Source: a virus
IMG/VR virus record: IMGVR_UViG_3300042287_000907
DNA: 64,000 nt
Strand: one strand, 5' to 3'
Below the pieces are notes generated by a model that saw nothing but the letters and a program-made list of their open reading frames with translations, ran no database searches and was not told the origin of the DNA. How positions within the stretch are numbered: the stretch's first letter is position 1; the number at the start of each line of letters is the position of its first letter. Positions 8,569-18,066 of this stretch are shown here, one piece after another. A program made the position numbers and the translations under genes.

Positions 8569-8817
8569 ATGAACAATGTCTATACCTTTGATCCCAAGGC
8601 CAAGGAAGATGAAGAGCGCAAGCAATCACTTTTAGAAGTCATAGATGCTGTGCGAGATCAGATAGAGCGAGGCGAGATTCGAGAACTAGTGGCCTGCAGT
8701 TTAGACAAGGATGGCGAGGCACAGATACATGTCAGTGCCTTGGATCTACCAGGCAGTGTCGGACTGTTTGAAATTGGCAAGCATCTGCTGATCTCACAGA
8801 CCAATGATGTGTTGTAA
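8569..8817 (+). CDS. Hypothetical phage protein
   Basis: ORF track. Confidence 0.65.
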   Translation: MNNVYTFDPKAKEDEERKQSLLEVIDAVRDQIERGEIRELVACSLDKDGEAQIHVSALDLPGSVGLFEIGKHLLISQTNDVL

Positions 8818-8846
8818 AAAAGCCACATAAACTGCAATGATCTAGG

Positions 8847-8875
8847 TTGACACATAAATAAAAAGACCGTATACT
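8847..8875 (+). promoter_or_regulatory. Sigma70 promoter P1 of tRNA operon
   Basis: TTGACA-17nt-TATACT. Confidence 0.85.
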
Positions 8876-8930
8876 AGCAGTTGTGTTTAGCAAAGAGTCA
8901 AAACTTTTTTGCCAGAAGTGCAAATAGAGG

Positions 8931-8959
8931 TTGACACAGAGACTAAATAAATGTATAAT
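8931..8959 (+). promoter_or_regulatory. Sigma70 promoter P2 of tRNA operon
   Basis: TTGACA-17nt-TATAAT with extended -10 TG-like context. Confidence 0.9.
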
Positions 8960-9010
8960 TAACACATGCACTAAAAATAGTGTGTGACTTTCAAGGAAAT
9001 GAAGAAGACA

Positions 9011-9154
9011 ATGAAACACGTATCATTACATATATCTTGTAAATCCGTAGCCCAGGTGGGAGGCTTTATGCCCTCATATTGGCTCGCGATTGATAGTATA
9101 TCTAATGATCGTACACCAGAGCTATTACCGGGGTCCGTGGAGATGTTAGTGTAA
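9011..9154 (+). CDS. Putative attenuator leader peptide (47 aa, contains all 20 amino acids)
   Basis: Manual translation MKHVSLHISCKSVAQVGGFMPSYWLAIDSISNDRTPELLPGSVEMLV*; in-frame alternative ATG at 8999; AAGGA upstream; 3' end overlaps the antiterminator. Confidence 0.7.
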   Translation: MKHVSLHISCKSVAQVGGFMPSYWLAIDSISNDRTPELLPGSVEMLV

Positions 9155-9186
9155 ACATAAAATACACAGCTACTTCAAAGGACCCC
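9130..9186 (+). promoter_or_regulatory. Putative antiterminator hairpin
   Basis: GGGGTCC(9130-36)/GGACCCC(9180-86), TGGAG/CTTCA and GTGTA/TACAC pairings; overlaps the terminator 5' arm. Confidence 0.7.
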
Positions 9187-9216
9187 AGGAATAAACACCC
9201 TGGGGTTTTTGTTTTT
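9182..9216 (+). terminator. Intrinsic terminator (attenuator)
   Basis: ACCCCAGG-9nt loop-CCTGGGGT followed by TTTTGTTTTT. Confidence 0.85.
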
Positions 9217-9228
9217 ATAAAGGAAAAA

Positions 9229-9408
9229 ATGGAACAGATAGATTACAAAAAATTAAATGAACGAGTCGTTGAACAGGCTTATGAAGCTGCTTTTAATCGA
9301 AATGAACTTTCGAAAGAACAACTTCAAAAACTTATTCAAGATAAGTTTGAACGTGCTAGAACATATCACGAATCGTTGGCAAAATTGTCGACGTTTAATG
9401 TAAACTAA
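9229..9408 (+). CDS. Small helical hypothetical protein (59 aa, not in ORF track)
   Basis: AAGGA SD; MEQIDYKKLNERVVEQAYEAAF...FNVN*. Confidence 0.65.
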   Translation: MEQIDYKKLNERVVEQAYEAAFNRNELSKEQLQKLIQDKFERARTYHESLAKLSTFNVN

Positions 9409-9519
9409 TAGCACAAAGTGTGAATATCAGGAAACGAGGTCCTGGCTCCGCACTATAAACACGGAGCGAACGGGCGGCCTGTAGGATGAAACTCTTCTTC
9501 TAGAGCGAAAAATTACAGC

Positions 9520-9578
9520 GTATTAAAGAGCATAGACCTGACCTGGACTGAGATGTCGCAGACTGTGTTCTTTAATAC
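9520..9578 (+). ncRNA. Stem-closed candidate small RNA
   Basis: 16-bp closing stem GTATTAAAGAGCATAG/CTGTGTTCTTTAATAC. Confidence 0.45.
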
Positions 9579-9644
9579 ACACTCTCCTACTCCACTTTAC
9601 AAGGAGGACAGATTGACATAGTCGATGGAGAGTGTTACAAATTT

Positions 9645-9733
9645 GGAGCTTGATCCCTACGGCGGACTGTAAATCCGTTGCCTTAATATGTAGGGTGGCT
9701 GGCAGTTAGGTTCGATTCCTTCAGGCTCCACCA
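9645..9733 (+). tRNA. tRNA-Tyr(GTA), atypical (no D arm)
   Basis: Acceptor GGAGCTT/AGGCTCC-A-CCA; anticodon loop CTGTAAA; TTCGATT T-loop. Confidence 0.65.
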
Positions 9734-9739
9734 AGTTTT

Positions 9740-9815
9740 GCCTCGTTCATATAACGGTCTATTATATCCGCCTGTCTAGCGGAATACAGGGGTTCGACTC
9801 CCCTACGAGGCGCCA
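9740..9815 (+). tRNA. tRNA-Asp(GTC)
   Basis: Cloverleaf; loop CTGTCTA; CCA encoded. Confidence 0.9.
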
Positions 9816-9821
9816 GTTTAT

Positions 9822-9897
9822 TCCCCAGTAGCACAGCGGTAGTTGCACTTGACTGTTAATCAAGGTGTCCGTGGTTCGATCCCACGCTGGGGAGCCA
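9822..9897 (+). tRNA. tRNA-Asn(GTT)
   Basis: Cloverleaf; loop CTGTTAA; CCA. Confidence 0.95.
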
Positions 9898-9905
9898 AGT
9901 TTTAT

Positions 9906-9980
9906 GGACCGTTCGTCTATCGGTTAGGACACTAGGTTTTCATCCTGGTAAGAGGGGTTCGACTCCCCTACGGTCTTCCA
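9906..9980 (+). tRNA. tRNA-Glu(TTC)
   Basis: Cloverleaf; loop TTTTCAT; CCA. Confidence 0.9.
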
Positions 9981-9986
9981 TATAAT

Positions 9987-10060
9987 GCGGGATTAGTTTA
10001 ATGGTCAAACGAAACCTTGCCAAGGTTTAGTCAGGAGTTCGATTCTCCTATCCCGCTCCA
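9987..10060 (+). tRNA. tRNA-Gly(GCC)
   Basis: Cloverleaf; loop TTGCCAA; U73-CCA. Confidence 0.95.
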
Positions 10061-10066
10061 AGTTAT

Positions 10067-10141
10067 ATGCCCTTAGTGTTAACGGCAGCACAACGGTCTC
10101 CAAAACCGCTAGTGGGGGTTCGAATCCCTCAGGGTATGCCA
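10067..10141 (+). tRNA. tRNA-Trp(CCA)
   Basis: Cloverleaf; loop CTCCAAA; G73-CCA. Confidence 0.9.
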
Positions 10142-10217
10142 ATTAGTATTATAAGTAATATGCTCGGCCCGGTAATTGCTATATTATGCTATCGAGCAAT
10201 AATTTAGAGGATATTGC

Positions 10218-10802
10218 ATGAACGACATCATTATACTAGACAATTTCTTACCTAAGTCATATGAAGATGAAATTGAAAAACATTTTTCTTCATTGGAGTT
10301 TCCCTGGTATTATAATCCGGGTGTTTCTTATTCACAAGAAGAGAACGCTAAATTTATTGCTAACGATAGCAATATAAAAGAAACCGACGGCTTCGTACAT
10401 AGATTGATCATAGAAAATGCAAAGGTAAGTGGGTATGGCGATCTAGTTAGGCCTATAATGTATTTTGTAGAAGACAAATTTAAAGTAAAGGTTAATTATA
10501 TCATCAGAGCAAGAGCCGTAATGATTTATAAAAATTCAGTGTTTGGAGAATTTTATAATGTTCCTCATGTTGACGATATGAACAGGCATATGACATTAAT
10601 TTACTATGTCAACGACAGCGATGGAGACACTGTTATCTTCAAAGAGAAATATGTAAATGATATTAGTTACAGTAAAAAGACTGTGGAACGTAGAGTTGAA
10701 CCTAGAAAAGGTAGAGCTGTTTTGTTTGACGGGCACCGTTATCATACAGGATCTGTGCCAAAATACAATAACAGAATGTTAATTAATTTCAATTTCAATT
10801 AA
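10218..10802 (+). CDS. 2OG-Fe(II) oxygenase
   Basis: PHVDD...IYYVNDSDGDT...FDGHRYHTG...RMLINFNF. Confidence 0.85.
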   Translation: MNDIIILDNFLPKSYEDEIEKHFSSLEFPWYYNPGVSYSQEENAKFIANDSNIKETDGFVHRLIIENAKVSGYGDLVRPIMYFVEDKFKVKVNYIIRARAVMIYKNSVFGEFYNVPHVDDMNRHMTLIYYVNDSDGDTVIFKEKYVNDISYSKKTVERRVEPRKGRAVLFDGHRYHTGSVPKYNNRMLINFNFN

Positions 10803-10803
10803 T

Positions 10804-10881
10804 AGTGCGGTGGCAGAGAGGCCCAATGCAAGAGTCTGCAAAACTCTAAAGCCGTGGGTTCAAATCCCACCCGCACTTCCA
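10804..10881 (+). tRNA. tRNA-Cys(GCA)
   Basis: Cloverleaf; loop CTGCAAA; U73-CCA. Confidence 0.9.
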
Positions 10882-10886
10882 ACAAT

Positions 10887-10978
10887 GCCAGCGAGACTTG
10901 GTAGTCAGAGAGGTTTTATAAACCTTTTAGCGCCAGATTAGCGTTCTTGAGAGGGTTCGATTCCCTCCGCTGGTACCA
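10887..10978 (+). tRNA. tRNA-Ile(TAT), atypical with long variable arm
   Basis: Acceptor GCCAGCG/CGCTGGT; loop TTTATAA; V-arm AGCGC/GCGTT; T arm GAGGG/CCCTC. Confidence 0.75.
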
Positions 10979-10982
10979 TTAT

Positions 10983-11060
10983 GTGTCGGTGGCAGAGAGG
11001 CCCATTGCAACGGATTGCAAATCCGTAAAACCGTCAGTTCAAATCTGACCCGACACTCCA
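10983..11060 (+). tRNA. tRNA-Cys(GCA), second copy
   Basis: Cloverleaf; loop TTGCAAA; U73-CCA. Confidence 0.9.
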
Positions 11061-11071
11061 GTAGAGTAAAT

Positions 11072-11665
11072 ATGTCTATGCTACCTGTTTATGAAAAATA
11101 TGCGTTATTGTCTAATAATGAAAAATTATTTTTATTCAATTTCGTATCTGGATTAAAATCAAATTCAATAATTTTAGAAGTAGGAACTTTTCTCGGTGGA
11201 AGTGCTGCTATAATGGCATCTTCTAATCCACAAGTAATCGTTCATACTATAGATGATTATAATGACAGACACGACAGGCATAAGCAATCAGTAAGTCTTA
11301 TGTTGCTAGAGTCTCTAGGTGAGAACCCTAGAACTAAAGAAAATGTAGAATTGTTATTAAAAGATTACAAAAATATATTTTTCCATAAAGGTAAAAGCCC
11401 TGATAATTTTAAAAATTGGGGAACACCGATTGATGTCTATTTCGAAGATGGTCTTCATAGAAATCCTACGTTAGAAAATAATGTAAATTACTGGACAAAA
11501 TTCTTATCAAAAAATGGTTACGTGATATTTCATGATCATCGACCGTTTCTTGAAACAGATCATCCTAGTAGATTTGAAGACGTAATTGATATCGTTCAAA
11601 GATTATCTAGTAATTTTGAGATAATCTCACAAGAAGAATCTTTGATTATTTTACAACAAAAATAA
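11072..11665 (+). CDS. Class I SAM-dependent methyltransferase (Methyltransf_24-like)
   Basis: ILEVGTFLGGSA, FEDGLH and GYVIFHD motifs; start moved to the ATG after tRNA-Cys. Confidence 0.8.
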   Translation: MSMLPVYEKYALLSNNEKLFLFNFVSGLKSNSIILEVGTFLGGSAAIMASSNPQVIVHTIDDYNDRHDRHKQSVSLMLLESLGENPRTKENVELLLKDYKNIFFHKGKSPDNFKNWGTPIDVYFEDGLHRNPTLENNVNYWTKFLSKNGYVIFHDHRPFLETDHPSRFEDVIDIVQRLSSNFEIISQEESLIILQQK

Positions 11666-11672
11666 AATTTAT

Positions 11673-11750
11673 GCCCCTCTAGCCCAATTGGTATGAGGCG
11701 TTTCTCTCAAAAGGAAAATCGTCCCGGTTCGAGTCCGGGGAGGAGTACCA
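11673..11750 (+). tRNA. tRNA-Leu(CAA), short variable loop
   Basis: Anticodon stem TTTCT/GGAAA, loop CTCAAAA; 5-nt variable region; A73-CCA. Confidence 0.75.
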
Positions 11751-11755
11751 AGTTT

Positions 11756-11846
11756 GGATGTAATAGTTGGTACGAGTGGGCATAAATTGCTTGCCCATGA
11801 CATGTTTCGAGCATGAAGGTTGGTTCGATTCCAACAGCATCCATCA
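11756..11846 (+). pseudogene. Degenerate tRNA-like element
   Basis: Acceptor GGATGT/GCATCC, T arm GTTGG-TTCGATT-CCAAC and V hairpin, but 9-nt anticodon loop and TCA end. Confidence 0.55.
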
Positions 11847-11852
11847 AGTTAT

Positions 11853-11942
11853 GGAAGTGTGGCTGAGTCTGGCTTAAGGCAGCAGTCTTGAAAACTGAAG
11901 TTCCGCAAGGGGCCGTGGGTTCGAATCCTACCACTTCCGCCA
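11853..11942 (+). tRNA. tRNA-Ser(TGA)
   Basis: Class II cloverleaf; loop CTTGAAA; G73-CCA. Confidence 0.95.
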
Positions 11943-11948
11943 ATGTAT

Positions 11949-12022
11949 TCCCGGATAGTTAAATGGTATAACAGTCGGCTGATAACCGGCCATTACAAGT
12001 TCGATTCTTGTTCTGGGAACCA
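11949..12022 (+). tRNA. tRNA-Ile(GAT)
   Basis: Cloverleaf; loop CTGATAA. Confidence 0.9.
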
Positions 12023-12073
12023 ATTTTTAAAAAGGAGATCTGTCATGACAAGTGACAAGAGTGATAAGATGTC

Positions 12074-12148
12074 GGGGGTATAACTTAACGGCTAAAGTAG
12101 TAGGCTTTTAACCTATTAATCAGAGTTCGATTCTCTGTGCCCCTACCA
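12074..12148 (+). tRNA. tRNA-Lys(TTT)
   Basis: Cloverleaf; loop CTTTTAA. Confidence 0.9.
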
Positions 12149-12216
12149 TATAAAAACACATTTTTCTGAACGCCAGTCAGTTGCCGTGCAGAGTAAGATT
12201 AGTGTGTTTCTATATG
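12147..12216 (+). ncRNA. Stem-closed candidate small RNA
   Basis: CATATAAAAACACATT/AGTGTGTTTCTATATG, 15 of 16 positions pair; spans the whole Lys-Met spacer. Confidence 0.45.
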
Positions 12217-12290
12217 GTAATGTAGCATAATGGTAGTGCAGCACCTTCATACGGTGTACAGTGAAAGTTCGACTCTTTCCATTACCACCA
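12216..12290 (+). tRNA. tRNA-Met/Ile2(CAT), elongator type
   Basis: Cloverleaf; loop TTCATAC; paired 1:72. Confidence 0.85.
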
Positions 12291-12295
12291 ATTAT

Positions 12296-12371
12296 CTCTC
12301 TAAAGTGTTATCTGGTTGCATCCGCGGTTTGGGGCCGTGTGGTCTAGGTTCGAATCCTAGTAGGGAGACCA
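12296..12371 (+). tRNA. tRNA-Pro(TGG)
   Basis: C1:G72, A73; loop TTTGGGG. Confidence 0.9.
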
Positions 12372-12374
12372 AGT

Positions 12375-12587
12375 TTTGTAAGTGTCAGCAAGTGAAGTCA
12401 CGCTGTTCAGTATTCTTCGAAGGTACTGTGCAGTAGAAGGCAAGCGGGTTCGATGCCTGGCCTATCTGTAATGGATAGGCGATAGATGGAATCCACGCTG
12501 GATGAATCCCAAGTGACGTACCGACTCCCGTCCGGACTTGTATAATCGGGTGAATGGTGCTGATAACGTGGTAGCACTACTTACAAA
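12375..12587 (+). ncRNA. About 210-nt multibranched candidate ncRNA
   Basis: TTTGTAAGT/ACTTACAAA closing stem; TGTCAGCA/TGCTGATA; GTCAC/GTGAC; hairpins capped by TTCG and GTAA. Confidence 0.6.
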
Positions 12588-12597
12588 TTCAATCTGT

Positions 12598-12671
12598 TGG
12601 GGGTTAGTGTAGCGGTAACACTACAGACTTTGACTCTGTCATCACTGGTTCGATCCCAGTACCCTCTGCCA
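12598..12671 (+). tRNA. tRNA-Gln(TTG)
   Basis: Cloverleaf; loop CTTTGAC; G73-CCA. Confidence 0.9.
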
Positions 12672-12675
12672 CAGA

Positions 12676-12760
12676 GTTCCGATCATCGCGGTAAGTGTAG
12701 CCGGCCGCCTATAAGGTCATCGATGATCGTGCCGTCGCGGGTAAGCGGCATCTCGGGAAC
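12676..12760 (+). ncRNA. 85-nt GC-rich structured candidate RNA
   Basis: GTTCC/GGAAC, GATCATCG/CGATGATC and GTGCCG/CGGCAT helices. Confidence 0.5.
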
Positions 12761-12762
12761 AT

Positions 12763-12837
12763 CGGTCCGTAGCTCAGTGGAAGAGTTCTGGTCTTCGAAA
12801 CCAGCTGTCGGGAGTTCGAATCTCTCCGGACCGGCCA
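12763..12837 (+). tRNA. tRNA-Arg(TCG)
   Basis: Cloverleaf; loop CTTCGAA. Confidence 0.9.
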
Positions 12838-12850
12838 TTACAAGGAGATT

Positions 12851-13057
12851 ATGATGAAACCTATGACTTTTAAAAATCGTATGAATAATGAACGTTTTGT
12901 CTGTGATGACGTCCGTGCTGTGGAAGTTATAGACGGAGAAGAATATCTCATAGTTCATCGACCCAATGAACATCGTGTTTTTAAGATGCGAAAAGATGCT
13001 TTGGAAAAAGATACCACTGTAGTGAAAGGGATATCACGAAACTTTGCGAAAGTTTAA
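12851..13057 (+). CDS. Small hypothetical protein (3' end overlaps tRNA-Arg(GCG))
   Basis: AAGGAG SD; ORF track. Confidence 0.6.
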   Translation: MMKPMTFKNRMNNERFVCDDVRAVEVIDGEEYLIVHRPNEHRVFKMRKDALEKDTTVVKGISRNFAKV

Positions 13058-13087
13058 GTTCACGTTCGACTCGTGGCAGTGGTACCA
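13013..13087 (+). tRNA. tRNA-Arg(GCG)
   Basis: ACCACTG/CAGTGGT acceptor; loop TTGCGAA. Confidence 0.85.
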
Positions 13088-13093
13088 AACAAT

Positions 13094-13168
13094 GGAGTCT
13101 GTGATGTAATGGTAGCATCCGAGATTGTGATTCTCGTCGCGTGGGTTCGATTCCCATCATTCTCCCCA
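13094..13168 (+). tRNA. tRNA-His(GTG)
   Basis: G-1:C73; loop TTGTGAT; two acceptor-stem mismatches. Confidence 0.8.
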
Positions 13169-13173
13169 AAAAT

Positions 13174-13249
13174 GCTGCTTTAGCTGATGTGGTCATAGCG
13201 GCGGTCTGAAGAACCGTTGAACCAGGTTCGATTCCTGGAGGCAGCACCA
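13174..13249 (+). tRNA. tRNA-Phe(GAA)
   Basis: Cloverleaf; loop CTGAAGA. Confidence 0.9.
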
Positions 13250-13337
13250 TATAACACTCTAGTGAAAGAACGAGCGTAGCTCTTAGGGCCTAGCCTGCGG
13301 CATTGCGGATTGCGGTGGCTAGTGTGTTTTTATATAT
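13250..13337 (+). ncRNA. Stem-closed candidate small RNA
   Basis: AACACTCTAG/CTAGTGTGTT closing stem flanked by TATA arms; GC-rich interior. Confidence 0.4.
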
Positions 13338-13421
13338 GCGAGTGTGGAGAAATGGTATACTCAGGAGACTTAAAATCTCCCGTCTTAGGGCATGAGGGTT
13401 CGAGTCCCTCCACTCGCACCA
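13338..13421 (+). tRNA. tRNA-Leu(TAA)
   Basis: Class II cloverleaf; loop CTTAAAA. Confidence 0.95.
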
Positions 13422-13446
13422 GAAATTTAGCATTGCTGTGTTAATA

Positions 13447-14082
13447 TTAATCAAAAATTCTAGCAGCTTCTTCAAAGCTACTAATTTGATTTATTGGAAA
13501 TCTTAGACTAAGGCTTAATCTCGAATAATATCCTCGATTATAATACACATTGTGAGGAATGTCTGTCCGAACCAATAAAGGGTGTGTAGCAGTTAGTTCA
13601 CATTGATCAATACAGATTACATCTTCGGTGCAGTAGTTTTTATATGTAATACCACTACCATACAAGTAATCGAACATTGAAGATTTATATGGATTCGGTT
13701 GTAAAATCGGAAAGACTTCACAATTTTTTTTGAACGTCCACCACTTGAATGCAGATTCTGAATCTGTTAATTCAAAATTAATTGCAAACGGAGTTTTTAT
13801 CCATTTATTATTTTCTAAAAAAACATCAGTATGTATATGAGGATCTTCTTTGTGTTTGCTTGGATCACCTACGTGTCCAAAAATTATCATAACATTAGGA
13901 AATACGTTTTTTGATCTAAAAAAATGTTTCGCTTCGTTTGACAGAAAATATCCTGTTTTTAAAGATGTATACAAATATTGTCTTGAGTTTGGATGTTTGT
14001 TAGATTTAGATTGAATGAGCTCGTCGAGAACATTTTCCATTAATGGATTGAATGAAATAGATAGTTGTTTAAAACACTGCAT
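13447..14082 (-). CDS. HxD...H double-stranded beta-helix (2OG-Fe(II)-like) protein
   Basis: HIHTD...FAINF...VRTDIPHNV...RLSLSLRF. Confidence 0.65.
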   Translation of the reverse strand: MQCFKQLSISFNPLMENVLDELIQSKSNKHPNSRQYLYTSLKTGYFLSNEAKHFFRSKNVFPNVMIIFGHVGDPSKHKEDPHIHTDVFLENNKWIKTPFAINFELTDSESAFKWWTFKKNCEVFPILQPNPYKSSMFDYLYGSGITYKNYCTEDVICIDQCELTATHPLLVRTDIPHNVYYNRGYYSRLSLSLRFPINQISSFEEAARIFD

Positions 14083-14104
14083 CTGATATTTATTTCTAAA
14101 ACTC

Positions 14105-14133
14105 TTGACAAGAGACTAAAATTGTCGTATAAT
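14105..14133 (+). promoter_or_regulatory. Sigma70 promoter (second tRNA transcription unit)
   Basis: TTGACA-17nt-TATAAT. Confidence 0.9.
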
Positions 14134-14147
14134 AGTTGTTGTAGTTA

Positions 14148-14231
14148 GCCCCGGTGGTGGAATGGTAGACACGTCGGTCTTAGAAGCCGATGTCGCAAGG
14201 CGTGAGAGTTCGAGTCTCTCCTGGGGCACCA
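14148..14231 (+). tRNA. tRNA-Leu(TAG)
   Basis: Class II cloverleaf; loop CTTAGAA. Confidence 0.95.
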
Positions 14232-14393
14232 TTAAGAAATAGCATTAGCGGGTATCGTCTATGGACGCATAGACTTATGAAGAATAGGGCCATCTTACTC
14301 TTCTGAAATAACCGTGGACAATGGCTGATGAGGAGAATCGAACTCCACTCAGAAATCCGTCTCATCCCATAGGGTGTAATGTTATTTTTTAAT
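14231..14393 (+). ncRNA. About 160-nt stem-closed candidate ncRNA
   Basis: 17-bp closing stem ATTAAGAAATAGCATTA/TAATGTTATTTTTTAAT; internal hairpins GTCTATG/CATAGAC and GGAG/CTCC. Confidence 0.55.
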
Positions 14394-14399
14394 GGTTAT

Positions 14400-14473
14400 G
14401 CCTCGTTAATTTAATGGTAGAATGCCCTCCTTACAAGTGGGATACGGCAGTTCGATTCTGTCACGAGGTACCA
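14400..14473 (+). tRNA. tRNA-Val(TAC)
   Basis: Cloverleaf; loop CTTACAA. Confidence 0.9.
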
Positions 14474-14480
14474 GTAATAC

Positions 14481-14566
14481 GGAAGACTCCCATAATGGTA
14501 TTGGAGCGGCTTGCTAAGCCGTCGATCGGCAACGGTTTCGGGGTTCGAGTCCCCGGTCTTCCGCCA
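14481..14566 (+). tRNA. tRNA-Ser(GCT)
   Basis: Class II cloverleaf; loop TTGCTAA. Confidence 0.9.
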
Positions 14567-14585
14567 AATTTTAAAAAGGAAATAT

Positions 14586-14765
14586 ATGAAACCTACTAAG
14601 AACTACAAGATGTCAAAGCCACTCAAGGCCAGCCTTGCACTGTCAACATTCCAAGATCCACATCAAAAGGGGCAGTGGAAACGTGCTATGATTGACGCTG
14701 AACTATGTGCGGCCATCCAACCTAAACGTGAAAAAGGTCGCAAGCCCGACGCAGTCAAGCAATAA
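14586..14765 (+). CDS. Small basic hypothetical protein
   Basis: AAAGGA SD before ATG 14586; MKPTKNYKMSK... Confidence 0.6.
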   Translation: MKPTKNYKMSKPLKASLALSTFQDPHQKGQWKRAMIDAELCAAIQPKREKGRKPDAVKQ

Positions 14766-14771
14766 AATTCT

Positions 14772-14845
14772 GGGGGATTAGTTAAATGGGATAACATCGG
14801 CTTTGCAAGCCGAGATTGAGAGTTCGATTCTCTCATCCTCCACCA
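14772..14845 (+). tRNA. tRNA-Ala(TGC)
   Basis: G3:U70 pair; loop TTTGCAA. Confidence 0.95.
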
Positions 14846-14862
14846 GAGATATATAGTATTAG

Positions 14863-14936
14863 GCCCTTTTAGTATAATGGTATTACACCTGTTTTGTAAT
14901 CAGGTTACGGCAGTTCGATTCTGTCAAGGGGCACCA
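14863..14936 (+). tRNA. tRNA-Thr(TGT)
   Basis: Cloverleaf; loop TTTGTAA. Confidence 0.9.
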
Positions 14937-14952
14937 ATTTTACCAAAAAGTA

Positions 14953-14981
14953 TTGACAAACACAGTAAAGAATGTTATACT
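14953..14981 (+). promoter_or_regulatory. Sigma70 promoter
   Basis: TTGACA-17nt-TATACT. Confidence 0.85.
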
Positions 14982-15002
14982 TGTTTTGTTGCGTTAGAAA
15001 TA

Positions 15003-15250
15003 ACGTGACCGGCGAGATGAAGGGTAGATGAGAAAAGACACAAGGCGTGAGCTTCATGCTTACTCCGAACTTACAATCCAACTGAACATTGGAACGTGTT
15101 TGTGTGATCCGATCCCTAATAGAATGTCATTTGTTAATCGGAAATATATGGACCTCTGTGTATTGTTAATTGCACATTGTCAAAGGAAGATTACAAACCT
15201 TCCGTTGTCCTTTGTCCGGTCTTTTACTTGACCTTTCGTCAAACCGTTAT
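15003..15250 (+). ncRNA. About 245-nt structured leader or ncRNA
   Basis: Long-range pairings GATGAAGGGT/ACCTTTCGTC, AAAAGAC/GTCTTTT and ACAAGG/CTTTGT; internal hairpins; 7-nt periodic tract. Confidence 0.55.
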
Positions 15251-15273
15251 ATTTTTAAAAAGAGAGAAAATCA

Positions 15274-15849
15274 ATGAACATCACACTGCGCAAGGCCAAT
15301 GCTGTACAACACAGCATCACAGAAGCAATCAAGAACATCAAAATTGATCTCACTGTAGAGATCAATGAGTTCCAAACAGTCGAGGACGTTATCACTAAAG
15401 CTAACTCCACCTTGGTAGAAAATGACGGCCGCCGTCAGAAGCTGACCATGGCTCTGTACAATATCCGTGCTCTAGTAGGCACAGCCAATACCGCCAGTGG
15501 TATCGACACTGCATTGGCCAAAGCAGCCTTTATCGACAAGCGTATTGGTCAGCTAGAGGAATTGGCCAAGGCCACAGAAATCACTGCTCTAGATGTAATC
15601 AAAGGCAAGCTGGACAAAATCCGCAACGACAAGAGCGAATCTACTCGCAGTCGCATCTACGGCTACAGCGACACAGTTACCACAGGTGTGCTAGGACTAG
15701 AACAGATCGCACAGGCCAAAGCAGAAGTGTTGAGTCTTAAAAAGCAGAAACAGAAGATCAACGACGAAGTGTTAGAACTCAACATCAAGACAGAGATTCC
15801 TCTTTCAGAAGATGTAGTTGCTGTATTGCAGGCCGAAGCATTAATTTAA
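15274..15849 (+). CDS. Coiled-coil protein of unknown function
   Basis: Helical heptad-rich sequence; ORF track. Confidence 0.75.
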   Translation: MNITLRKANAVQHSITEAIKNIKIDLTVEINEFQTVEDVITKANSTLVENDGRRQKLTMALYNIRALVGTANTASGIDTALAKAAFIDKRIGQLEELAKATEITALDVIKGKLDKIRNDKSESTRSRIYGYSDTVTTGVLGLEQIAQAKAEVLSLKKQKQKINDEVLELNIKTEIPLSEDVVAVLQAEALI

Positions 15850-15855
15850 AACTAT

Positions 15856-15929
15856 CGCGGGATAGAGAAACGGTAACTCACGAGTCTCATAAGCTCGAGA
15901 TCCTGGTTCGATTCCGGGTCCCGCAACCA
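15856..15929 (+). tRNA. tRNA-fMet(CAT), initiator type
   Basis: C1:A72 mismatch; CGCGGG start; loop CTCATAA. Confidence 0.85.
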
Positions 15930-15943
15930 ACCATAAGGTACGT

Positions 15944-16171
15944 ATGAAAAATAAATCACTGAGTCGTGGTCCCGAAATTGACACAGAAAAATGTGTGGAA
16001 AATATAGGCGGTAATAGATTTGACTTGGTGCTGATTGCATCAGCTCGTGCCAGAGAGCTCAGTCGCAGACACAAGGCAGCTGAACTACAGACGCAGATGA
16101 ACGCACCTGTGGCAGCACTGTTAGATGTGCAGTCAGGTGCGGTGGGTCGAGAATACCTGAAAAAAGTCTAG
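15944..16171 (+). CDS. rpoZ: RNA polymerase omega subunit homolog
   Basis: CVENIGGNRFDLVLIASARAREL...PVAALLDV matches the RpoZ conserved regions. Confidence 0.8.
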   Translation: MKNKSLSRGPEIDTEKCVENIGGNRFDLVLIASARARELSRRHKAAELQTQMNAPVAALLDVQSGAVGREYLKKV

Positions 16172-16200
16172 TCTTAAGATTATAGATTAAATAAATCTAT

Positions 16201-16274
16201 GCGGGGTTCGTATAGTGGTAATACCTGAGCCTTCCAAGCTCATGCGGAGAGTTCGATTCTCTTACCCCGCTCCA
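16201..16274 (+). tRNA. tRNA-Gly(TCC)
   Basis: Cloverleaf; loop CTTCCAA. Confidence 0.95.
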
Positions 16275-16288
16275 AATAAAATAACAAG

Positions 16289-16825
16289 ATGAAAATAATC
16301 GTTACCGGACATACGAGAGGTCTAGGAAAAGGCATTTATGATTATTTTTCTAAAGACAATGAAGTTGTTGGATTTTCAAAAAGTAATGGGTTTGATATCA
16401 CTGACCCTGATTGTAGAACAGAAATAGTAAATGCATCTGAAGATGCAGATATTTTTGTGAATAACGCACATGTTAATGGAGATTCTGCACAACTGCATTT
16501 ACTTAAAGATATGCACGAACTTTGGAAACATCAAAATAAAATTATAATTAATGTAAGTAGTTTTAGATCCACTTTTGTAGATGGCAATTTTGAATTTTCA
16601 GAGTCTTTTCGAGTTAAGAAAGAGTTGGATCTTTTTTGTACAAAAAATCAACACGTATTAAAATATCCTTATCTAATAAATCTTAGACCCGGCCTTATTG
16701 ATACAGACAGAACACGCAATGAACAGGGTAAAAAAATGAATGTCCAAGACGTAATTGTGGTATTAGATTTTATTTTGAAAAACAAAGATATTTTTAAGAT
16801 ACTAGATATAGGCTTTAAAGGCTGA
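16289..16825 (+). CDS. Short-chain dehydrogenase/reductase-like protein
   Basis: TGHTRGLG, FVNNA, IINVSS and PGLIDT motifs; the catalytic YxxxK position appears as FxxxK. Confidence 0.75.
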   Translation: MKIIVTGHTRGLGKGIYDYFSKDNEVVGFSKSNGFDITDPDCRTEIVNASEDADIFVNNAHVNGDSAQLHLLKDMHELWKHQNKIIINVSSFRSTFVDGNFEFSESFRVKKELDLFCTKNQHVLKYPYLINLRPGLIDTDRTRNEQGKKMNVQDVIVVLDFILKNKDIFKILDIGFKG

Positions 16826-16855
16826 AAAAATTATTAAATTCTCAGAAGACACATA

Positions 16856-17431
16856 ATGTACAAAACGATAGACAAAAATGAAATTTTTCAAAAATTTGAT
16901 TTCTCATCGTTGATCACCAAGCAAGATGATCTCGAAGCCTGTGAAATTATCAAGACGATCATAGCTGACGGTAACTATTTTACTAATTCGCCTAAGTATC
17001 AAACCAAAGAAAACATCTTTGCTAGATCAGAAGCTGTATGGTTAAAATACCGTGTGAGTTTCATGATGAGTGCGTTCATGTATCTAGGCCGTGAAGCCAA
17101 AATATCTAACATGATGGCCTGGAGTTTTATGACCAATCTCGAGGGTGCCGAAAACCGTGATAATCTCTGGCATCATCATTGGCATCCTACTACCCCCACC
17201 GCACAAATACTCAGTGGTATTTGGTATCTACACATACCCGAGGATGTTAAAGATCGAGACTATTGCGGTACAGAGATGGCACCGGGGGGTCCTCAATCTG
17301 ATGACAGATATTTTGTGCGTCCCGCAGATGGTAATTGGTTGATCTATCCCGGCAACATGTGGCATCGCCCCGGAATCGTACAGAGCGATCAATACAGATT
17401 TGTCTTAGCCGCAGACATTCAAATAGACTAA
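16856..17431 (+). CDS. Putative 2OG-Fe(II) oxygenase
   Basis: WHHH...LSGIWYL...GTE...LIYP...WHRP...RFVLAAD. Confidence 0.7.
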   Translation: MYKTIDKNEIFQKFDFSSLITKQDDLEACEIIKTIIADGNYFTNSPKYQTKENIFARSEAVWLKYRVSFMMSAFMYLGREAKISNMMAWSFMTNLEGAENRDNLWHHHWHPTTPTAQILSGIWYLHIPEDVKDRDYCGTEMAPGGPQSDDRYFVRPADGNWLIYPGNMWHRPGIVQSDQYRFVLAADIQID

Positions 17432-17432
17432 A

Positions 17433-17507
17433 CTGGCCATAGTATAATGGATAATACAGCGAGCTTCTACCTCGCGAATGTGGGTTCGATTCCTGCTGGC
17501 CGGACCA
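17433..17507 (+). tRNA. tRNA-Arg(TCT)
   Basis: Cloverleaf; stem GCGAG/CTCGC; loop CTTCTAC. Confidence 0.9.
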
Positions 17508-17511
17508 CGCC

Positions 17512-17585
17512 GCTCTCATAGTATAAAAGCATTACACTACATTGGTAATGTAGAAACGGTGGAGCATTACCACCTGAGAGCACCA
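17512..17585 (+). tRNA. tRNA-Thr(GGT), non-canonical T and D loops
   Basis: GCTCTCA/TGAGAGC acceptor; loop TTGGTAA; T-loop AGCATTA. Confidence 0.75.
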
Positions 17586-17586
17586 C

Positions 17587-17615
17587 TTGACAAAAATTGA
17601 TAAATGTAGTATAAT
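17587..17615 (+). promoter_or_regulatory. Sigma70 promoter
   Basis: TTGACA-17nt-TATAAT. Confidence 0.9.
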
Positions 17616-17643
17616 ACTAGTATACAAATTATCAAAGGCATAT

Positions 17644-18066
17644 ATGCAGATCATCATGGAAGGTAGGGCTAGTCCTACCAAATCAATCATAGAAACCTCC
17701 GCGAATTTCTTTGCCAAAGAACTGGGATTGAGCCGTAGCCGGTTCACTCTGTTGATCATGACTGAACGAGGAATGGCCCGTAAAGAAGGCATGCGAGGTG
17801 CGGTGCATAAAGTAGGTCCAAAATTTCTTACCATGATCATAGACTCTGGGCTAGAGTTTGAAAGACTGATAATCACCCTGGCACACGAAATGATACATGT
17901 CAAACAATATGCTCGCGGTCAGATCAAATCCAGCCGCAGTTGCAAAACACACTATTGGATGGGCCGGCACATACGTAAAAGCTATTACGATCAACCTTGG
18001 GAAATCGAAGCCTATACCAAAGAACGTGTGCTAGCCAATAAAATTTTTGCGATAACAGGAGCATGA
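17644..18066 (+). CDS. Zincin-type metallopeptidase-like protein
   Basis: LAHEMIHVKQY (HExxH) and PWEIEAY; start moved downstream of the promoter. Confidence 0.75.
   Translation: MQIIMEGRASPTKSIIETSANFFAKELGLSRSRFTLLIMTERGMARKEGMRGAVHKVGPKFLTMIIDSGLEFERLIITLAHEMIHVKQYARGQIKSSRSCKTHYWMGRHIRKSYYDQPWEIEAYTKERVLANKIFAITGA

Follow-up and report, generated by a model that had tools for sequence, protein, structure and literature searches.

In the classical amino acid leaders (trpL, hisL, pheL, leuL, thrL and the ilv leaders), a short leader peptide contains runs of one to three cognate amino acids, and the genes under control are those for the biosynthesis of these amino acids. These leaders also possess a 1:2 anti-antiterminator or a pause hairpin, by means of which an untranslated leader terminates. 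T-box riboswitches bind one specific uncharged tRNA directly and need neither a ribosome nor an ORF. There is still debate about the reason for which large phages possess tRNA genes and about the use they make of them; the matching of codon usage, compensation for the decay of host tRNAs, and escape from defences that cleave tRNAs are the candidates.

The most similar known system is the uORF of whiB7/wblC in Actinobacteria, which is long and diverse and is followed by a Rho-independent terminator with a competing antiterminator (PMC10274678). Efficient translation of the whiB7 uORF leads to termination, and stalling leads to read-through (PMC10274678). whiB7 was induced by knocking down genes (for biosynthetic enzymes, tRNAs or tRNA synthetases) that concern 18 of the 20 amino acids, and removal of the single Trp codon from the uORF greatly weakens the response to Trp deprivation (PMC10274678). 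There a single Trp codon suffices for a response to Trp deprivation, which answers the objection that one codon per amino acid would be too few. The uORF is enriched in Ala and is not kept complete, since that of M. smegmatis has no Cys and that of M. tuberculosis is without several residues, and its target is a transcription factor for antibiotic resistance and alanine supply (PMC10274678).

The phage element described here resembles whiB7 in architecture, with a diverse uORF and a predicted choice between terminator and antiterminator. Unlike whiB7, it is viral, is not homologous, and lies before tRNA genes; moreover, it is the completeness itself, i.e. the presence of all 20 amino acids in the leader peptide, that is conserved, in as few as 35 codons. 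With the classical leaders the element shares the order of its parts: promoter, short ORF, antiterminator versus intrinsic terminator, and regulated genes. As in those leaders, the stop codon lies approximately 60–70 nt before the end of the U-tract, and a ribosome at the stop codon would block the antiterminator. Unlike leaders of the trp/his type, the phage leader has no codon runs (its 20 residues occur mostly once each), no anti-antiterminator is predicted, and the putatively regulated genes encode tRNAs. Because both codon runs and an anti-antiterminator are missing, the element is filed under ribosome-mediated attenuation, outside every named family.

T-box riboswitches have in common with the phage element the dependence on tRNA status (putative in the phage), the choice between terminator and antiterminator, and translation-related genes downstream. 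In antibiotic-sensing attenuators with a leader ORF, such as the mef/mel and msrD leaders, a ribosome stalled in the leader ORF is reported to relieve a downstream terminator, so that trouble in translation is turned into transcription, as proposed for the phage element (PMC4335068, PMC10314930). In those leaders the stalling needs a drug and a specific nascent peptide, amino-acid completeness plays no part, and the targets are resistance genes (PMC4335068, PMC10314930). A full-text literature search found no account of leader-peptide control over phage or cellular tRNA genes. An earlier reading of this DNA (hereafter the sequence-only reading) had known of no description of a general sensor of this kind. 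This stands for tRNA genes as the target, for which no published case was found, but not for the sensing of many amino acids via single codons, which the whiB7 uORF already performs (PMC10274678).

The window and its relatives

The window, i.e. the whole stretch of 64,000 nucleotides that was analysed, comes from an uncultured giant freshwater phage. On the + strand, a ClpP-like gene and an 82-aa gene are followed by two promoters, the leader ORF, a hairpin, a terminator, a 59-aa ORF, a spacer and the tRNA genes. The features are as follows.

8847..8875, + strand: upstream sigma70-type promoter, TTGACA-17-TATACT, 11/12 (consensus scan)
8931..8959, + strand: proximal sigma70-type promoter, TTGACA-17-TATAAT, 12/12 (consensus scan)
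9011..9154, + strand: leader ORF, 47 codons plus TAA (MKHVSLH...EMLV), open in 200 of 200 judged related loci
9011..9121, + strand: putative sensing part of the leader, codons 1–37, with all 20 amino acids (codon count); a ribosome stalled here would leave 9130 onward free
9130..9186, + strand: predicted antiterminator hairpin P1 (GGGGTCC/GGACCCC, TGGAG/CUUCA, GUGUA/UACAC), fold of -24.6 kcal/mol and covariation
9182..9216, + strand: predicted intrinsic terminator, stem ACCCCAGG/CCUGGGGU, 9-nt loop and U-tract (pairing, and compensatory changes in homologs)
9229..9408, + strand: conserved 59-aa ORF with an AAGGA ribosome-binding site, 46–100% identical across loci
9645..13421, + strand: first block of the tRNA array, from an atypical Tyr gene to Leu-TAA (ARAGORN, Rfam)

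A DNA search against 50,697 phage records gave no match to the window. In DNA and protein searches of cultured phage records the region had no relatives, and the neighbouring genes gave remote matches only. CheckV puts the nearest virus record, G001, at a completeness of 16%; this fragment does not contain the region. Homologs were found by scanning IMG/VR and the JGI metagenomes with the flanking 82-aa and 59-aa proteins, which yielded 216 loci. The start of the 59-aa homolog could be placed in 206 of them, six of which had too little upstream sequence, leaving 200 loci that were judged. These represent 110 distinct leader regions and 104 distinct peptides, and as the homologs are mutually related, counts over them overstate independence. 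The related contigs are up to 356 kb in length and come from metagenomes, apparently mostly of lake water.

Tandem consensus sigma70 promoters had been proposed at 8847 and 8931 by the sequence-only reading, and both were present, with 11 and 12 of the 12 consensus positions, respectively. The transcription start is expected at approximately 8966, downstream of the proximal promoter. Among the homologs, the 260 nt upstream contained a promoter-like site of 10/12 or better in all 106 unique leaders with enough sequence; a site of at least 11/12 was found in 102 and two or more sites in 88 of the 106, against a background of 0.86 promoter-like sites per kb. In approximately twenty of the promoter-like sites of the homologs the -10 box ends 6–11 nt before the ATG, and those leaders are therefore probably leaderless mRNAs.

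Between the terminator and position 14105 of the window there was no site of at least 11/12 (one site of 10/12 at 9959 and several of 9/12 were detected), so that the first twenty or so tRNAs would depend on read-through, barring unrecognised phage-specific promoters. A further consensus-like promoter within 600 nt downstream was found in 37 of the 106 homologs, indicating that control of the tRNAs by the switch would not be exclusive everywhere.

According to the sequence-only reading, the terminator is followed by the tRNA array. A same-strand tRNA array was indeed found 200–1100 nt after the 59-aa gene in 20 of the 20 loci scanned, with variable tRNA order, but it is not the immediate neighbour, as the 59-aa ORF and a structured spacer of 235 nt intervene. 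The 59-aa protein had no match in Pfam, PHROGs or the ESM Atlas. The window contains 28 tRNA genes detected by ARAGORN plus two detected by Rfam only, and the array encodes tRNAs for all 20 amino acids.

A cmscan search of positions 8700–18000 against Rfam, at E values up to 1, gave no leader, T-box or other match in 8847–9216. The matches obtained in 8700–18000 were tRNA, a weak tRNA-Sec and three weak, chance-level Plastid-ycf2 matches on tRNA antisense. A tmRNA-like or other known RNA gene was rejected as an identity of the region, for which both ARAGORN and Rfam were negative.

The leader ORF and its amino-acid completeness

The 47-codon ORF at 9011–9154 that the sequence-only reading had pointed out was present, and its frame is conserved across the homologs. 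A second in-frame ATG lies at 8999; the homologs favour 9011 as the start. An ORF of at least 28 codons, ending 45–125 nt before the 59-aa gene, was found in 200 of the 200 judged loci. In pairwise comparisons, 132 of 168 indels (79%) located 5' of the hairpin were multiples of three. The distance from ORF to hairpin, taken modulo 3, was 0 in 45, 2 in 35 and 1 in 20 homologs, i.e. the hairpin is read in all three frames. The 5' part thus behaves as coding sequence and the 3' part as translated RNA, and P1, being read in all three frames, is constrained as RNA.

Translation of the leader ORF would start from a ribosome-binding site that is weak or oddly spaced (AAGGAA, 12 nt before the ATG at 9011). 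An internal start at Met20, with GGGAGG 4 nt upstream, was considered and rejected, since GGGAGG is missing in many homologs. Codon-position and synonymous/non-synonymous counts, made on ungapped comparisons, were uninformative and nearly flat for both the leader and a control gene. Searches of Pfam, PHROGs and the ESM Atlas gave no match for the leader, and a collection of 5.8 billion proteins contained only three gene calls for it.

All 20 amino acids and 30 different codons had been counted in the first 37 codons by the sequence-only reading, together with the isoacceptor families GGA/GGC, ATA/ATT, TCN/AGT, TTA/CTC and CCC/CCA. Both statements were exact. Among the 104 distinct peptides (34–51 aa), 91 contained all 20 residues, and the 13 others missed one to three, with 19 residues present in seven peptides, 18 in five and 17 in one. 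The shortest complete peptides (L181, L175 and L193) were 35 residues long.

Such completeness is unlikely by chance. With residue frequencies calculated from the phage's own long ORFs, the probability of a complete set was 0.037 at 47 residues, 0.0065 at 38 and approximately 0.005 at 37, and it amounted to 0.3–0.5% over 35–37 residues. In real windows of the proteins encoded in the 64-kb stretch, completeness was seen in 2.6% (47 residues) and 0.4% (37 residues). To allow for kinship, the peptides were cut down to 13 with pairwise identities below 40%; eight of these were complete where 0.39 would be expected, a number not attained in any of 200,000 simulations. A simulation of decay showed that random change at 20% of the nucleotides keeps only 11% of complete leaders complete.

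The residues that make up the set are not fixed in position. Most rare residues of the leader are present in a single copy. Cys, which accounts for 1.4% of residues in the background and has an expected presence of 0.47, was found in all 101 peptides of up to 55 residues; in 94 of them it is single-copy, and these single copies are spread over 15 alignment columns. The single copies of His, Tyr and Phe occupied 14, 8 and 9 columns, respectively. Single-copy residues are thus lost in one place and regained in another, suggesting selection for presence and not for position. In four lineages (L033, L045, L046 and L068) the peptides can barely be aligned with the rest, yet they are complete. The alignment of related loci (approximately 100 distinct homologs) therefore shows ORF, frame and completeness to be kept despite divergence of the peptide.

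The set was complete 5' of P1 in 78 of 87 complete peptides, against 12.6 expected from permutation within each peptide. The codon at which the last new residue first occurs starts at a median of 9 nt 5' of P1 in the homologs, which would be about the last spot where a stalled ribosome leaves P1 free. Completeness therefore belongs to exactly that segment in which stalling would favour the antiterminator. Judged by these comparisons of sequence, the amino-acid completeness of the leader is under selection.

Codon boxes were counted in 98 leaders, within the ORF segment 5' of the hairpin, and compared with synonymous resampling, a procedure that ignores kinship. Both boxes of Arg were present in 74 of the 98 leaders (37.6 expected), both of Ile (ATH and ATA) in 81 of 98 (47.7 expected), both of Leu in 84 of 98 (65.6 expected) and both of Gly in 59 of 98 (37.9 expected). 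No association was detected at 20 loci between leader codons and optional isoacceptors (Lys-CTT/AAG, Thr-GGT/ACY, Val-GAC, Arg-ACG and Leu-CAA), and AAG was missing from the leader in 10 of 10 phages that carry a Lys-CTT tRNA. A version of the idea in which the leader represents every anticodon therefore gained no support; the data speak only for the amino acids and for the main boxes of split codon families.

The predicted antiterminator and terminator

The hairpin that the sequence-only reading had described, GGGGTCC (9130–9136) with GGACCCC (9180–9186) plus TGGAG/CTTCA and GTGTA/TACAC, was found with a predicted energy of -24.6 kcal/mol. The stop codon of the leader (9152–9154) lies within it. 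In the terminator, ACCCCAGG (9182–9189) pairs with CCTGGGGT (9199–9206) and is followed by TTTTGTTTTT. The stem has 8 bp, is GC-rich, and was predicted at -14.2 kcal/mol, or -18.6 kcal/mol when extended. A consensus scan missed this terminator because its loop has 9 nt and the scan was limited to 8.

P1 and the terminator have positions 9182–9186 in common. Covariation was computed on 36 aligned homologs. In P1, 12 of the 17 pairs were changed on both sides; the covariation score was 0.285 versus 0.174 in shuffles (0 of 500 reached the observed score), and it was at most 0.129 when the partners were slid. In the terminator, 99.3% of the cells were paired, and five of the eight pairs showed compensatory changes. 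The column of position 9186 covaries both with its P1 partner (AU in 21, GC in 11) and with its terminator partner (UG in 17, CG in 12, UA in 6). Double covariation of this kind would be expected of two helices that are used in turn.

Folding of the segment 9120–9216 of the window gave P1 without the terminator for the free RNA and the terminator for the masked RNA, and masking of the RNA up to 9136, 9142, 9154 or 9166 led to the terminator fold in each case. The body of the ORF folds on itself without pairing to P1. The mutual exclusivity of hairpin and terminator put forward by the sequence-only reading was thus borne out by the shared nucleotides, the covariation of both helices, and the switch of the folds on masking.

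With the nucleotides masked that a ribosome standing on the stop codon would cover, the terminator was predicted to form in 109 of 109 distinct homologs; it was lost from the free minimum-energy fold in 83 of the 109. In 26–28 of the 109 homologs the equilibrium fold keeps the terminator without a ribosome, so that in these the switch would rest on the order of folding. P1 was predicted in the whole untranslated leader, before the 3' arm of the terminator is made, in 109 of 109 homologs. As P1 is the predicted state of the untranslated leader throughout, there would be no anti-antiterminator, and the untranslated state would be one of read-through ('on').

Proposed mechanism, alternatives and meaning

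In the homologs, P1 mostly starts 21–28 nt before the stop codon, and the 5' arm of the terminator mostly lies 20–26 nt after it (28 nt in the window). By established footprint dimensions, approximately 9135–9166 would lie under a ribosome whose A site holds the stop codon, and such a ribosome would therefore remove the 5' arm of P1 and leave the terminator untouched. It would follow from this geometry that stalling leads to read-through. A reversed control, in which translation causes read-through, was rejected because the 5' arm of the terminator, 28 nt past the stop codon, is outside the ribosome's reach.

These results suggest that the element is a ribosome-mediated transcription attenuator with a 'pangram' leader, which gauges the decoding of every amino acid; we consider this reading probable. 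According to it, host RNA polymerase would initiate at the two strong promoters, followed by a ribosome translating the 47 codons of the leader. With fast decoding, this ribosome would be within the last ten codons or on the stop codon (9152–9154) as the polymerase reaches 9200–9216. It would then occupy the 5' arm of P1 and leave ACCCC (9182–9186) free, so that the terminator would form and an RNA of approximately 250 nt would be released. A ribosome delayed at any of codons 1–37, or never loaded, would allow P1 to form first; ACCCC would be sequestered, no terminator would be made, and transcription would continue through the 59-aa ORF to the tRNA genes. The element would thus sense how fast each amino acid is decoded, with both codon boxes of Arg, Ile, Leu, Ser and Gly included, and its output would be a set of tRNAs for every amino acid. 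Too slow a reading of any codon class by the ribosomes probably leads the phage to make its own tRNAs.

Several observations speak against the attenuator. Among them are points given above: the poor ribosome-binding site, the homologs in which the free equilibrium fold keeps the terminator, the further downstream promoters, the untracked isoacceptors, the 13 incomplete peptides, the kinship of the homologs, and the predicted 'on' state of the untranslated leader, in contrast to trp. In addition, each amino acid is mostly represented by one codon, and a delay would have to be strong to be felt. The last new residue in the window, Glu37, lies 9 nt before P1, and a ribosome stalled there may partly occlude the hairpin.

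Translation of the leader, the kinetics of coupling, the direction of control in vivo and the physiological trigger are putative parts of this model. The trigger may be that host tRNAs are diluted or cleaved, that translation is under general stress, or that the level of the phage's own tRNAs feeds back on the element. The anticodon nucleases named by the sequence-only reading (PrrC, VapC or PARIS, for example) are a speculative choice of trigger. Amino-acid starvation would be an odd trigger because extra tRNA would not cure starvation; for the same reason a loss of tRNA itself would make better sense as the signal, be it that the host pool decays, that defence nucleases cleave tRNAs, or that the phage's own tRNA level feeds back.

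In every locus the terminator is followed first by the 59-aa ORF, the conservation of which exceeds that of the leader. This would fit an attenuator of the same build that acts as a general gauge of translation stress (ribosome inhibitors, host shut-off or lost coupling of transcription and translation), the main product of which is the 59-aa protein and not the tRNAs, with completeness merely widening the range of insults detected. The predicted 'on' state of the untranslated leader and the additional downstream promoter in about a third of the homologs are in agreement with such a gauge, as is the response of whiB7 to both antibiotics and starvation (PMC10274678). However, the sensing of stress as such does not call for all 20 amino acids, and completeness is not maintained in the uORFs of whiB7 (PMC10274678), whereas in the phage leader both completeness and the presence of both codon boxes appear to be under selection. 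Furthermore, the array behind the switch covers all 20 amino acids, and an array was present in all 20 loci scanned. We therefore regard the stress gauge as unlikely.

Conservation of the ORF would also be expected of an ordinary small protein gene with its own promoters and terminator, in which the peptide is the product and the hairpin at the stop codon serves for stabilisation or translational coupling. A core motif, IAQVGGFMPSYWLAINSLSNDRTPE, is recognisable in most of the leader family, and its Trp column is invariant, as would suit a functional protein. Against this, the peptides of the four divergent lineages are complete without being alignable, single-copy residues shift among up to 15 columns, and the C-terminal 10 codons run in three frames over a conserved RNA helix. 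A protein gene would also leave the absence of any protein-family match and the scarcity of gene calls (three among 5.8 billion proteins) unaccounted for, and it gives no reason for the covarying nucleotides common to P1 and the terminator. This explanation is very improbable.

Least probable of all is that the terminated transcript of approximately 250 nt, driven by two consensus promoters, is itself the product, i.e. an abundant structured small RNA, possibly of dual function like rnTrpL, to which the properties of the ORF are secondary: the 251-nt transcript folds far better than shuffles (z = -5.2) and its 3' part shows high conservation of both loop and stem sequence, but in-frame indels, the placement of start and stop codons and amino-acid completeness are left unexplained, no Rfam family was matched, and a small RNA would be compatible with the attenuator as an added role and not an alternative to it.

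A more specific version of the pangram attenuator is an on-demand counter-defence circuit, in which the leader detects the loss of any single host tRNA species, e.g. by anticodon nucleases or by decay of the pool after destruction of host DNA, and the phage in response transcribes its own complete tRNA set. We put this forward tentatively, at somewhat less than even chances. If it is true, the new tRNAs would restore translation of the leader and switch the element off, giving a closed loop that holds decoding capacity constant during infection.

We know of no other case in which amino-acid completeness, rather than sequence, is the conserved character of a peptide, and short ORFs may be searched for this novel constraint. 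With approximately 370 bp and consensus sigma70 promoters, the element is compact and can be tested directly in a laboratory host, and it could serve to report global decoding capacity. If the input is indeed the slow reading of any codon class and the output a tRNA for every amino acid, then tRNA supply would be a quantity that the phage regulates, and a pangram attenuator would indicate depletion as the selective force behind phage tRNAs.

Leader ORF and its counterparts in divergent lineages

Within the 47-codon leader ORF of the candidate attenuator, GGGAGG lies 4 nt 5' of the in-frame codon for Met20 (ATG, 9068-9070; the two together span 9058-9070). This arrangement may serve either as an internal start or as a Shine-Dalgarno-like pause site. 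Among the leader's homologs, only some carry its GGFM motif. When the transcript is folded to its minimum energy, most of the ORF (its body, 9019-9112) is predicted to fold back on itself into a single long, imperfect hairpin.

In five divergent lineages of related metagenomic phage loci (L045, L046, L033, L059 and L068), the roughly 30 nt upstream of each leader ATG contain a -10 box (TACAAT or TATACT) whose end is 6-11 nt short of the ATG. The mRNAs of these leaders are probably leaderless, with translation starting at the 5' end.

tRNA genes called differently by ARAGORN and Rfam

ARAGORN and Rfam differ on three regions of the window, which are listed with the tRNA of a related locus:

9644-9730: weak tRNA-clan match, as tRNA-Sec (Rfam, 28.6 bits); no tRNA called by ARAGORN
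10887-10978: 92-nt tRNA, anticodon TAT, long variable arm (ARAGORN call, Ile)
17512-17582: tRNA (Rfam, 51 bits); absent from the ARAGORN calls
L039, 6416-6504: tRNA-Tyr (GTA), example of the first array position

In related loci, a tRNA-Tyr (GTA) of 84-89 nt opens the array at the position equivalent to 9644-9730, and this region is probably the sole Tyr tRNA of the window, with an atypical fold. The TAT tRNA gene, which is shared by many related arrays, scored highest in Rfam against tRNA-Sec, at a sub-threshold 35.7 bits. The tRNA at 17512-17582 directly adjoins the preceding tRNA-Arg (TCT).

Protein and tmRNA genes associated with the array

Two protein genes interrupt the tRNA array, and tmRNA genes lie near the arrays of three relatives:

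10218-10802: 2OG-Fe(II) oxygenase gene (PF13640, 8e-8)
11015-11665: class I methyltransferase gene (PF13578, 3e-10)
L038, 3902-4318: tmRNA gene, tag peptide ...DADFAMAA
L039, 4565-4981: tmRNA gene, tag peptide ...DAEFAIAA
L045, 9915-10320: tmRNA gene, tag peptide ANDEVYALAA

Unlike these related phages, no tmRNA gene was found within the window.

In all related loci, a 59-aa protein (9229-9408 in the window) is encoded between the terminator and the tRNAs. Its sequence is helical-looking and has a core that is invariant (EQ..KLIQ.K..RA; consensus KEQLQKLIQDKFERAR); searches of Pfam, PHROGs and the ESM Atlas returned no match. This protein would be the first product of transcriptional read-through past the predicted terminator.
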